A DNA stretch of 64,000 bases from a virus. Positions within the stretch are counted from its first letter, which is position 1, and every line of letters starts with the position of its first letter. Positions 57,839 through 64,000 of this stretch are shown here, one piece after another. A program made the position numbers and the translations under genes. The DNA lies in the IMG/VR virus record IMGVR_UViG_3300017963_007659, positions 64,001 through 128,000 of that record. One strand, 5' to 3'. Under the pieces are notes generated by a model, which saw nothing but the letters and a program-made list of their open reading frames with translations, was not told the origin of the DNA and searched no databases.

Positions 57839-60800
57839 ATGCGATATCCGCAGTATCTTGCGTCGAACGAGTTGACTGCGCTCGGACGAAAGACTCTTCT
57901 GGACCGATACGCTCGCAAGGCACCGAAGACGGCACCCGTAGAGCTTGGAGACCTCGTCATCCTTTGCACAGACAAGGAGTCTGGACAGAGGGAGATTGGC
58001 AGCGTCATCGGAGTCAACAACGATGACCGGACCGTCAATATTCGCGCGGAAGATGGGGAAGAGTACACCGTCGATGTGGAGGAGGTAGACAAGCCTCTGG
58101 AGACGGATCCTCAAGATGTGGTCCAGCGTGTCGCTCGCGCCCTATCGAAGGTTGAGGAGAAGCCTCGTCGCTGGGAGAACATCTTCAAGAAGCTGATGGG
58201 CAACTGGAAGTTCGTTCCAGCTGGTCGCATTCTCACCGGAGCAGGTATCCAGCAAGAGACGCCGCTCACCTTCTTCAACTGCAACGTCATCCCAGCTCCC
58301 AAGGATAGCCGAGAAGGGATCATCGACACAGCAAAGATTCTCGCGGAGCTGTTCTCCCGTGGGGCTGGCGTCGGGACCTACCTCTCCTCTCTGCGTCCTC
58401 GCTTCGCCTACGTGAAGGGTGTCAACGGACGCTCTTCCGGGGCTGTGAGCTGGGGGTCTCTGTACTCGCATCTCACGGGGCTCATTGAGCAAGGAGGCTG
58501 CGTCACTGGAGAGACTCTTGTAGCTACGTCTAAGGGTGATTTTCCAATCAAGAATCTTGTAGGAACGACACCAGACGTCTATTCTTATGACTGCTCCACA
58601 GAAAGGACTGTGCTCAAAACAGCGAAGTGGGTGGGTAAGACCGGGGATAGTCAAAGAATCCTACGACTTACGACAACCCAGGGTCTTATTCTTGAAGCTA
58701 CTCCTGACCATCTCATCCTGTGTGCTGACAAAAAGTATCGTCCTCTACAAGAATTGGAGGTAGGGACGGCACTGAATGTCGAGAGTGCTTCTATCCACCA
58801 TGTCCAATCCGTAGAAGACTGTGGGGAAGAAGACGTTTACGATCTCGAAGTCCCTGATACTCACAATTTCTTTGTATTCTCGAAGGGTTGTAAAGAGGGT
58901 GTCTTCATACACAACTCCCGTCGCGGTGCCGCAATGCTCGTTCTACACGTCTGGCACCCGGATGTGTACGAGTTCATTGAGTGCAAGAGGGAGCCCAAAG
59001 CTAAGCAGCTCGCTCTCCTGGCTGACAAGCTCGAATACGGCTTTGGTCTCACGGAGTTCGCTCAAGAAGCCAGAGATCTCGCGGGGCAATGGCCAGCTCA
59101 CATCCAGCACGCCAATCTCTCGGTTGGAATCACAGACGATTTCATGGAAGCTGTTATTCACGATCGGGACTGGCAGCTCGTCTTTCCTGATACGACAGTT
59201 CCGGAGTACACAGAGAAGTGGGATGGGGACCTCAAGAAGTGGCAAGAGGAAGGTCATCCAATCAAAGTCCACAAGGTAGTCAAGGCGCGCGACCTGTGGA
59301 ACAAGCTCATGTACTCCGCGTGGGACTCGGCTGAGCCGGGAGTCATCTACATCGATACGGTCAACAGTGAGAGTACCTCATGGTGGTACTGCAACATGCT
59401 GGCGACGAACCCTTGCGGAGAGCAGCCTCTCCCGAGCTGGTACGGTGTCTGTAACCTTGGAGCAATCAATCTCCCTCGCTTCCTCATGGAGGATCCAGAC
59501 GACCCGAACAAAGTCATCCTTGACAAGGAAGCCTACAAGAATGCGATCCATGTCTCCATGCGCTTCCTGGACAACGTTATCGACACCACTCCCTACTTCT
59601 TCGATGAGCAAGAATACAATGCGAAGCGTGAGCGTCGAGTTGGCTTGAGTCCCTTCATGGGGCTTGCCGAAGCTCTGGTCATTCTTGGTATTCGCTATGG
59701 GTCTGAGGAGGCGGTAGACTTCGTGGAGGAGGCTGGCTTGGTCGCGGCTTCAGAGTCCCTCAGAGCCAGCGTGGACCTCGCAGAAGAGAAGGGCTGCTGT
59801 GATGTGTTGGCTACTCCAGAGGACCGGGAGAAGTTCTTGGAGAGTCTGTATGTGCAACGTATTCTCCGGTATCTGCCTCCAGAGGACAACCAGGACTTGC
59901 AGTCACGGATTCGTGAGCATGGAGCCAGGAACGTGAGCTTCACGACCTCAGCGCCTACCGGGACCATCGGGACCATGGTGGCAACGTCTACCGGAATCGA
60001 GCCCTTCTTTCGTTTCGAGTACCGCCAGAACACCAATCTCGGAACCCATATCAAACGAGAGCGTGTTCTGGATGAATGGTATAGGCAACACGGTGAGAGC
60101 GCTGCTGTTCCGGATTACTTCGTGAGCGCTGGGGAGCTGACTCCAAAAGAGCACCTCGTCATGACTGCTGCGCTCCAGCGGTGGATTGACTCAGGTATCA
60201 GTAAGACCTACAACCTACCACAGGAGTATACACCAGAGGACATCGGAAAGATCTACATGGAGATCTGGAAACGTCGATGTAAGGGAGGCACGGTCTTCCG
60301 TGAAGGGTCTCGTACCGTTCAGGTTCTTGAGAGTCTCGACCCCAAGGAGAAGAAGACGTTCGAGATGAGCTTCCCGGAGAAGACTCCTGGACCGCCGAAG
60401 GGGGACAAGAAAGATGGTTCCACGTGGTCCATCGACTCTCCCTCTGGTACCCTGCACGCTACGTTCAATCAGTATCCGACGCCAGACAACCCCTTCGAGA
60501 CATTCCTGAGAATTGGGAAGGCAGGCTCTGATGTTGGAGCTATGACCGAAGCTTTCGGACGTGTCATCTCCCTCTTCCTCCAGATGAGAGGTCCAATCCG
60601 GCCCACAAGACGCTGTGAGCTTCTTGTCGAGCAGCTTGAGGGGATCGGTGGTCGAGACCAGGTTGGCTTCGGTCCAAATAAGATTCGTTCGATCCCTGAT
60701 GCGATTGCTAAGTCGATAAGTCGACATTTGCAGTCAATAGTAGGTAGGGACGATGACTTGTCATGCTCAGAAGATGAAGAAGAGAAACCAGCTTCAACTC

Positions 60801-60895
60801 ATGGCTTGGATATGTGTCCCGAGTGTGGTAATCTCGGATTGCGGTCGGAGGAAGGGTGCACGAGCTGCGCCTTCTGCGGCTATAGCAAATGCTGA
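57839..60895 (+). CDS. nrdJ: class II (adenosylcobalamin-dependent) ribonucleotide reductase, intein-containing
   Basis: PAGRIL, FFNC, DSREGI, GAGVG, RRGAAM, TNPCGEQPL, CNLG, APTGT, ISKTYN, TSCPD-type C-terminus ending CPEC...C..C; no adjacent nrdB. Confidence 0.92.
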   Translation: MRYPQYLASNELTALGRKTLLDRYARKAPKTAPVELGDLVILCTDKESGQREIGSVIGVNNDDRTVNIRAEDGEEYTVDVEEVDKPLETDPQDVVQRVARALSKVEEKPRRWENIFKKLMGNWKFVPAGRILTGAGIQQETPLTFFNCNVIPAPKDSREGIIDTAKILAELFSRGAGVGTYLSSLRPRFAYVKGVNGRSSGAVSWGSLYSHLTGLIEQGGCVTGETLVATSKGDFPIKNLVGTTPDVYSYDCSTERTVLKTAKWVGKTGDSQRILRLTTTQGLILEATPDHLILCADKKYRPLQELEVGTALNVESASIHHVQSVEDCGEEDVYDLEVPDTHNFFVFSKGCKEGVFIHNSRRGAAMLVLHVWHPDVYEFIECKREPKAKQLALLADKLEYGFGLTEFAQEARDLAGQWPAHIQHANLSVGITDDFMEAVIHDRDWQLVFPDTTVPEYTEKWDGDLKKWQEEGHPIKVHKVVKARDLWNKLMYSAWDSAEPGVIYIDTVNSESTSWWYCNMLATNPCGEQPLPSWYGVCNLGAINLPRFLMEDPDDPNKVILDKEAYKNAIHVSMRFLDNVIDTTPYFFDEQEYNAKRERRVGLSPFMGLAEALVILGIRYGSEEAVDFVEEAGLVAASESLRASVDLAEEKGCCDVLATPEDREKFLESLYVQRILRYLPPEDNQDLQSRIREHGARNVSFTTSAPTGTIGTMVATSTGIEPFFRFEYRQNTNLGTHIKRERVLDEWYRQHGESAAVPDYFVSAGELTPKEHLVMTAALQRWIDSGISKTYNLPQEYTPEDIGKIYMEIWKRRCKGGTVFREGSRTVQVLESLDPKEKKTFEMSFPEKTPGPPKGDKKDGSTWSIDSPSGTLHATFNQYPTPDNPFETFLRIGKAGSDVGAMTEAFGRVISLFLQMRGPIRPTRRCELLVEQLEGIGGRDQVGFGPNKIRSIPDAIAKSISRHLQSIVGRDDDLSCSEDEEEKPASTHGLDMCPECGNLGLRSEEGCTSCAFCGYSKC
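58499..58915 (+). mobile_element. 139-aa mini-intein in NrdJ (no homing endonuclease)
   Basis: QGG|CVTGETLV...ATPDH...VYDLEVPDTHNF...IHN|SRRGA. Confidence 0.92.
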
Positions 60896-62515: not shown

Positions 62516-62543
62516 AGTTTTGAGAGCAATTCTCAAAGAAAGG

Positions 62544-62554
62544 TAGTCAAAGTA
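62544..62554 (+). promoter_or_regulatory. YAGTCAAAGTA motif upstream of the TnpB-like gene
   Basis: Perfect TAGTCAAAGTA 7 nt before ATG 62562; no Shine-Dalgarno. Confidence 0.65.
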
Positions 62555-62561
62555 TATTGTC

Positions 62562-63743
62562 ATGAAGGTTTATCGCTCGACACGCTGTACCTTGAAGTAC
62601 ACCAATCCACACAAGCTGGACATCTTGTCTGAGATTATAGACGAGTACGGCAGGGTGGTGCGGTTGTACATCGACTTGTTCTGGGAAAAGTCGCGATACC
62701 TTCATAATAATGACCTCTTGAAGCCTGTCATCGAATCAATCCCTCCGACGTGGCTGGGATATAAATTCAAAAGGGACGCGGCTCGTGAGGCTCTGCGAAA
62801 CATCCGGTCTATAACGAATAGACCAGGGACGCCACAAAAGAAGCCGAACTATAAAGGGCGGTCAATGACTCTCCATTTTGACACCGCCTATCTGACGGAC
62901 TCCAAAAAGACAGATTCTTTTGACGCCTGGTTTAGATTGCGTGGAGTTGGGAAGTATTCGGATACAGGAGAGGGGATATGCATCGCTTTTCCTATAAAAT
63001 TCCACAAGCATTTCAATCAATTGAGCGCCAAAGGAAGGCGCGTCAATACTATCCATGTCTATCGGGACTCAGTACAATTCATCTTTGAACTTGAGACCGG
63101 GGAGAAGAGGACCAAGGGCAAGCAGGTCGGAGTCTACACAAATGGGGAGACTCTTGCCACTATCTCCGATGGCACGAAGTACGGTACGGACATCGGACGC
63201 TATGTCGATCGTGTACAAAGATGCGTGCCTGGGTCAAAGGGCCACAGGAAGGCGCAGCGAGCGCTCAAACAGCGTCTGAATGAAGTAGTCAAAGAAATTG
63301 GGCGTAAGCATGTCAAGCTCTTTGTGCTTGAGCGTGCCAAACCCAAGAAGGATGCGATAGGCGGACGTTGCTCGCCAGAAAACAAGCAACGATCTCTCGG
63401 TATCTGGGCATACACCTACTGGTTGGAGAGGTTTCATAGAGAGTGTGAGATGAGACGTTCTCGCTTTCGCTCTACCGCTCCTGTATATACCAAGACGTGT
63501 TGTTCAGCATGTGGAAGTACCGAGAGGAGTAATCTGTCCGGTGAAACGTTCCTGTGTACCACATGTGGTCATAGGAGCAAAGCAGCAGTGAACGTTGCTC
63601 AAAACACTTTGGACAGGTATCTCTCTGGACCCTACGGTGCCAGATTCAAACCCGGACGCTCTGGAAAACGAGGTCAGGGAACGGTATTTGTACAATCGCC
63701 TATCTCTCAAAAACAGGGATCGACGAAAGGACTACAAGAATGA
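62562..63743 (+). CDS. tnpB: TnpB-family RNA-guided protein, predicted nuclease-dead (TldR-like)
   Basis: TnpB architecture (SDGTKYG, CSACG...F.C..CGH zinc finger, N..QN). RuvC-I reads GVYT (D to Y192), RuvC-II E257 kept, RuvC-III reads KAAVN (D to A342). No tnpA in the window. Confidence 0.85.
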   Translation: MKVYRSTRCTLKYTNPHKLDILSEIIDEYGRVVRLYIDLFWEKSRYLHNNDLLKPVIESIPPTWLGYKFKRDAAREALRNIRSITNRPGTPQKKPNYKGRSMTLHFDTAYLTDSKKTDSFDAWFRLRGVGKYSDTGEGICIAFPIKFHKHFNQLSAKGRRVNTIHVYRDSVQFIFELETGEKRTKGKQVGVYTNGETLATISDGTKYGTDIGRYVDRVQRCVPGSKGHRKAQRALKQRLNEVVKEIGRKHVKLFVLERAKPKKDAIGGRCSPENKQRSLGIWAYTYWLERFHRECEMRRSRFRSTAPVYTKTCCSACGSTERSNLSGETFLCTTCGHRSKAAVNVAQNTLDRYLSGPYGARFKPGRSGKRGQGTVFVQSPISQKQGSTKGLQE

Positions 63744-63745
63744 CC
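63540..63745 (+). ncRNA. predicted omegaRNA/guide overlapping the tnpB 3' end (boundaries unknown)
   Basis: By family knowledge, TnpB omegaRNAs overlap the 3' end of the ORF; not directly demonstrable from sequence. Confidence 0.35.
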
Positions 63746-64000
63746 TACTGTTGTCCTCTATGTGACCTGGAGATCACCAAGGACCGTCCGTACTGTAGCA
63801 ACATGTACTGCACCGTCGGCTACTACAACTGTCTATCCATGAACTGTCTATCCATGCCAGATGCTCCAGACATGGAGGATGTCGACAATCCTCTGGATAA
63901 ACGGGAAGCTCTCAATCGAAAGCAGGGTTCCTATTTTGGAGTGGATGCGGCTTCTCAGTGGCTACTGGAGAGAGCAGCATATTCTTTCACGAAGAATCAG
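63740..64000 (+). CDS. Cys-rich hypothetical protein, truncated by the window end
   Basis: ATG overlaps the tnpB stop (ATGA); MTYCCPLCDLEITKDRPYCSNMYC... open to 64000. Confidence 0.55.
   Translation, partial: MTYCCPLCDLEITKDRPYCSNMYCTVGYYNCLSMNCLSMPDAPDMEDVDNPLDKREALNRKQGSYFGVDAASQWLLERAAYSFTKNQ

Follow-up and report, generated by a model that had tools for sequence, protein, structure and literature searches.

The DNA analyzed here (the window) is a 64,000-nt stretch, G000:64001-128000, of a 186,314-base IMG/VR virus record that occurs in sediment and seawater metagenomes and whose completeness is estimated at 50%. The carrier is a large marine-sediment phage. Near the right end of the window lies a tnpB gene, in a block of small ORFs without known function that is flanked by a class II ribonucleotide reductase and a conserved 338-aa gene. 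The gene immediately upstream encodes an unrelated phage protein (phrog_2457) and not a serine-recombinase tnpA. The features of the locus, in window coordinates, are as follows.

62544..62554, plus strand: promoter-like motif YAGTCAAAGTA, perfect copy, ending 7 nt before the ATG
62562..63743, plus strand: predicted nuclease-dead TnpB (P0001), 393 aa, ORF uninterrupted by a stop
63135..63137, plus strand: RuvC-I position, Tyr192 (codon TAC) for an invariant Asp, by alignment to relatives
63330..63332, plus strand: RuvC-II Glu257, kept, by alignment
63501..63566, plus strand: zinc finger C314/C317/C332/C335, all four Cys kept, by alignment
63585..63587, plus strand: RuvC-III position, Ala342 (codon GCA) for an invariant Asp, by alignment
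63365..63684, plus strand: putative ωRNA scaffold, about 320 nt, wholly in coding sequence, 5′ boundary approximate
63366-63391, plus strand: helix H1 of the consensus structure
63394-63402/63518-63526, plus strand: helix H2 of the consensus structure
63452-63462, plus strand: helix H3 of the consensus structure
63527-63536/63614-63623, plus strand: helix H4 of the consensus structure
63624-63644, plus strand: helix H5 of the consensus structure
63651-63679, plus strand: variable hairpin of the consensus structure
63680-63684, plus strand: terminal AACGG, the conserved scaffold end
63685..63704, plus strand: predicted guide slot, the first 16-20 nt past the scaffold, where conservation ends in relatives
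63740..64000, continuing to G000 128087, plus strand: next gene, a 115-aa Cys-rich ORFan whose ATG overlaps the TnpB stop

An earlier sequence-only reading had described the gene as an intact 393-aa TnpB homologue, and the uninterrupted ORF and matches to the TnpB profiles PF07282 (E=3e-5) and NF040570 (E=2e-9) agree with this. Residues 1-360 are predicted to fold as TnpB/Cas12f (pLDDT 82; matches to Cas12f/TnpB at Z 13-18, rmsd 13-19 Å), and residues 364-393 are predicted to form a disordered read-through over the RNA 3′ end and guide. The same reading had assigned Tyr192, Glu257 and Ala342 to the catalytic triad and had seen a retained zinc finger; the alignment to relatives for which it had called confirmed the residue equivalence, and all four Cys are present. 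The three triad columns are D/E/D in 27/27 first-found homologues, and both Asp columns are invariant across the 53 members of a non-redundant relative set. Each neighborhood is also altered, with G194N and I195G at RuvC-I and D339S and N340K at RuvC-III. At tnpB, two independent assemblies (L001 and L002) are base-for-base identical, and the contigs of two runs show no variants there, which rules out assembly error as the source of the substitutions. [quoted passage not shown] Outside the triad, five conserved basic residues are lost from the lid (267-276), a region of low model confidence, which may weaken R-loop binding; positions 105 and 107, which by presumed positional equivalence probably read the target-adjacent motif, differ from those of the intact clade. 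This kind of TnpB occurs once in the record. The absence of tnpA, noted earlier for the window, extends to the whole 186-kb record (∼50% complete), in which neither a resolvase-type (PF00239) nor a Y1 (PF01797) transposase was found.

The perfect phage motif 7 nt upstream of the gene and the overlap of its stop with the next ATG, both reported previously, were reproduced, the latter at 63740-63743. At one mismatch or fewer the motif occurs 21 times in the window against 1.55 expected, and since all 14 exact copies in the genome lie just upstream of a same-strand start codon, it behaves as a phage promoter element. The mRNA is probably near-leaderless, since the gene lacks a Shine-Dalgarno sequence. 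This promoter indicates how the gene may be expressed, and not an action of the protein on the phage program. Profile searches of the record gave no match to sigma-70 region 2 or Terminase_6N, and no RNA datasets were found among the listed sequencing runs with the locus. The 7-bp inverted repeat at 62519-62537, between the upstream stop and the motif, is a possible operator, or else what remains of a left end.

Four-fold synonymous identity to relatives is 0.16-0.22 (saturated) over aa 1-250 and 0.46-0.71 over aa 251-363, and the same pattern is seen among the relatives themselves. This confinement of synonymous conservation to aa 251-363 places the ∼320-nt scaffold inside the gene, a feature absent from the earlier reading of the window. 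In all relatives a conserved AACGG and the T that follows it mark the limit of conservation, and the window has both at 63680-63685. A consensus structure was computed from 23 relatives with the window sequence excluded. The window preserves 73 of its 90 pairs (relatives break 2-19); of the 19 pairs in which both bases have changed, 16 remain able to pair (binomial p=0.0004). Three compensated pairs are private to the window (0/38 relatives), and two of these keep the base pair while altering conserved arginines (R276Q and R325L); two mismatches in H4 are also private. Many of the compensations are common to relatives and may predate the catalytic loss. The pattern suggests that RNA structure stayed under selection after the nuclease lobe had relaxed, although for a singleton the timing of the RNA changes relative to the Asp losses is an inference.

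The minimum-energy fold of the window sequence shows the same helices, with a folding energy z of -4.6 against dinucleotide shuffles. Because regions nearer the 5′ end of the gene likewise fold more stably than their synonymous shuffles, folding energy alone is unspecific and the RNA claim stands on covariation. The H3 loop is complementary to the terminal AACG (by eye, unscored), consistent with a pseudoknot before the guide; in a competing fold, the 5′ strand of H4 can instead be occupied by the first 13 nt around the guide start. An eroded closing stem was considered and ruled out, the strand in question pairing in H4 with its change compensated. The right-end motif persists as part of the RNA, such that the ωRNA overlaps the tnpB 3′ end and ends at GG. 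The scaffold had no match in Rfam.

The relatives of the protein form a clade of IS607-linked TnpBs (intact members P0002-P0060 and L003-L058), many on large viral contigs, with 33-45% identity to the window protein. The nearest proteins are 43-45% identical and have an intact triad. An IS607-type recombinase lies directly upstream of tnpB in L008, L012, L027, L044 and L050, identified in L008 by profile (185.7 bits on NF033518) and in the other four by motif. In a quick IQ-TREE run the window TnpB was nested within the intact clade, with a terminal branch longer than any other (2.34 versus a median of 0.44) and of unsure placement inside the clade. Nesting in an otherwise DED-intact clade makes the catalytic loss the protein's own event. 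The earlier reading had proposed a check for orthologues and synteny. No orthologue was found among ∼15 billion proteins, a set in which close relatives of the phage are not sampled, and neither an orthologue nor a close phage was found in IMG/VR, metagenomes or cultured phages. The 90% cluster of the protein has one member, and the next match among 50% representatives is 43% identical. Related phage contigs were recovered through the 338-aa neighbor (70-80% identity), and in four of them the syntenic site is empty of TnpB. Literature searches found no published description of this clade or gene.

Many intact clade members are solo (L013, L015, L017, L029, L035, L037, L038, L042 and others). 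Their similarity ends within ∼20 nt of the ATG, neither a left end nor tnpA is visible, and they occupy varied phage sites; such members may spread by homing. After the element end in L021 (∼4135 onward), the right end appears by eye to give an in-frame start to a deformylase-like gene downstream.

Whether the gene is retained or decaying was addressed through positions conserved in at least 90% of relatives. The window protein has lost five of nine such positions in the RuvC pocket versus five of 42 elsewhere (Fisher p=0.009). Among intact relatives, 48 of 53 lose no pocket position, pocket losses ranging from 0 to 2 and losses elsewhere from 0 to 7. Of the 26 conserved positions that precede residue 256 and belong to neither the pocket nor the RNA overlap, 25 are retained and only N34 is lost; four of the five non-pocket losses fall in the lid and zinc-finger lobe. 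The changes in eight pocket codons require at least 15 base changes, indicating a long unconstrained period there. In simulations of neutral decay starting from intact relatives, with indels left out, the observed combination (an open frame, at least five pocket losses and at most five other losses) arose in 1 of 56,000 runs. The pocket windows were drawn with the alignment already in view and the gene was picked for being dead and intact; despite both selection effects, neutral decay of the whole gene remains a poor fit. The earlier claim that this is not a decaying insertion sequence is thus upheld by the pocket-specific losses and the simulation.

The guide slot may begin at 63686, because the T after AACGG is invariant. 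Near-identical element pairs (L003/L005 and L016/L020) diverge at the guide start. The search for a guide target covered both strands, in both registers, of the record and of ∼29 kb of flanking sequence taken from other assemblies (together ∼215 kb of phage DNA). No target rose above chance; the best off-site match had 3 mismatches in 16, similar to shuffled guides. Public scans gave ten exact 16-mers in viral contigs and two exact 19-mers in genomes, without a shared flanking motif and in numbers no higher than rough chance estimates. As a positive control, the same approach was applied to a second TnpB, intact and from a different family, that lies 1.5 kb downstream and beyond the end of the window (G000 129218-130411; L081:1719-2912). 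This element interrupts the 338-aa gene close to its end, is absent in the related phage L060, and has as its right flank a recoded copy of the 3′ end of that gene. Its guide target was found in the native allele at G000 129070, with 4 mismatches in 20.

Two candidate explanations of the guide were tried within the phage. Identification of the guide with the word at 63731-63741, which matches early promoters, was ruled out, the word lying 46 nt beyond the scaffold end and belonging to a dispersed 134-copy 10-mer that is present in related phages without the gene at the site. If U-G wobble and a one-base shift of the adjacent motif are allowed, the first five bases of the guide fit the late promoter motif; with no clear enrichment beyond the motif and an estimated even chance of some such fit, this is a weak lead. 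Neither the dispersed 10-mer nor the three promoter classes account for the guide. The 10-mer itself, CTWCAAGAAT, occurs in 65 and 69 copies on the two strands versus 8.5 and 13.5 expected, without flank conservation. It overlaps the -10 element of sigma70-type promoters, is also found in L060, L062 and L063, has a copy at 63732-63741, and resembles a protein-binding site.

Taken together, these findings are read, at slightly better than even probability, as an independently tamed, TldR-like RNA-guided DNA binder. The sequence-only reading had proposed a domesticated factor wired into phage regulation. The domestication half of that proposal is consistent with a nuclease-dead, non-decaying protein whose catalytic loss is its own event, whose scaffold is kept and whose gene stands behind a phage motif; the regulatory half is not yet supported, no guide target having been found in the phage DNA searched. 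In this scenario an IS607-type TnpB element would have entered the phage, lost tnpA and come under a phage promoter, after which selection was relaxed on the RuvC pocket but persisted on the body of the protein and on the ωRNA within the gene. The gene would be transcribed from the phage motif within the phage program, and the protein would bind the structured RNA that the last third of its mRNA forms. Since RuvC normally carries out 5′ trimming, and in AmaTnpB ωRNA trimming requires an intact RuvC (PMC10278001), the ωRNA would be left unprocessed and used untrimmed, or be cut by other RNases. The 16-20 nt past the scaffold could then guide the protein to a motif-flanked DNA site, which it would occupy but leave uncut, most likely obstructing transcription in the TldR fashion; the target would probably lie in the host, a competing element or the unsequenced part of the phage. 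A bolder version, which is unlikely, is a one-transcript regulator: the mRNA would serve as both message and guide RNA, loaded by the dead TnpB without RuvC trimming, and the complex would silence or occupy a locus of the host or of a competitor, or else numerous short sites made up of motif plus seed, in the middle phase of infection.

Somewhat unlikely, and the best of the alternatives, is that the ribonucleoprotein is kept for something other than one long guide match. It might regulate the downstream gene, to which it is translationally coupled, through binding to its own mRNA, recognize a short motif and seed at many sites, or serve as a decoy for active elements belonging to this clade. 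A conserved scaffold for which no target was found would suit such roles, as would an RNA and guide lying wholly in a frame that stays open as far as the next ATG, and the missing basic residues of the lid. Another point in favor comes from the same two samples, where a 65,328-bp contig in runs X1 and X2 carries a clade relative with intact RuvC-III motif and scaffold, at ∼2x depth. Direct support is absent, however, for any of these roles; the late promoter motif and the dispersed 10-mer, which might have served as short-seed sites, are both at chance level, and the conserved N-terminal REC/WED positions fit DNA binding.

Less probable again is a neutralized selfish element, from which selection removed cutting and of which the rest persists passively or only for downstream coupling. 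The protein is a singleton on the longest terminal branch, its gene lies in a variable ORFan block absent from related phages, and H4 carries its two private mismatches; the choice of a dead, intact gene and of post-alignment pocket windows also leans this way. Against it, the pocket-specific changes are multi-base and 25 of 26 N-terminal conserved positions are kept, the RNA compensations are private and the simulation disfavors neutral decay; moreover, upkeep of an open frame would leave the conserved residues unexplained. A rearranged active site that still nicks DNA or trims RNA through E257 and a new E196 is very improbable: E196 is unusual (most relatives have N or K in this column) and rearranged RuvC sites occur in other TnpB clades (PMC10278001, PMC10691335), but both Asp are gone, with Tyr at RuvC-I and no acidic substitute in RuvC-III, and G194, S311, N340 and R325 are also lost.

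The RNA-guided binder favored here resembles known systems in several respects. Inactive TnpBs have been exapted repeatedly (PMC10691335), and TldRs associated with fliC, oppF and csrA have been described (10.1101/2023.11.30.569447; PMC13622181). As in TldRs, the window protein has lost two RuvC acidic residues with the fold (predicted) kept, and its locus retains a guide-RNA scaffold without a transposase; like the fliC clade, it is phage-borne. It probably works like a TldR. The window gene differs in its separate origin from an IS607-linked clade, in its full zinc finger, and in an RNA and guide that lie entirely in coding sequence, whereas fliC and oppF gRNAs are described downstream of the gene. 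No conserved partner gene, orthologues or promoter target were found for it, and because these, together with repression, are the marks of a TldR clade, the protein is not filed as a TldR member. IS607-family TnpB-ωRNA systems (ISFba1, PMC11061315, and the intact clade) share the RNA scaffold and AACGG end, whereas the window copy is without D192, D342 and tnpA, has a phage promoter and altered positions 105 and 107, and reads through its own RNA. RNA-guided binding without cleavage is a theme in common with sigma-associated dCas12f, Cas12m and Cas12k (PMC10691335), but the window gene has no CRISPR array, sigma factor or transposon machinery as a partner.

If RNA-guided DNA binding is correct, the locus would add a further independent domestication of TnpB, one of IS607-side origin that took place in a large phage and is seen early in the process, its guide RNA as yet contained in the coding sequence, and would provide a compact natural programmable binder with a core of ∼360 aa. 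Its value is limited by its being a singleton with no target found, on a theme already published. RNA structure here appears to outweigh protein conservation once catalysis is dropped, which raises the question of how a dead TnpB obtains its ωRNA.

Several other features of the phage were observed. The class II ribonucleotide reductase at window 57839-60895 has an intein-like insert and a TSCPD domain; its relative in L060 has an intein at another position, with a weak HNH match. A phage peptide-chain release factor in L084 (5236-5929) was called as pieces of 37 and 189 aa and is possibly a frameshifted RF2-like gene. Finally, G000 ∼3900-29000 holds a long tandem series of ORFs that resemble one another, are 220-260 aa long and in several cases have putative N-terminal motifs of a glycine-rich, kinase-like kind.
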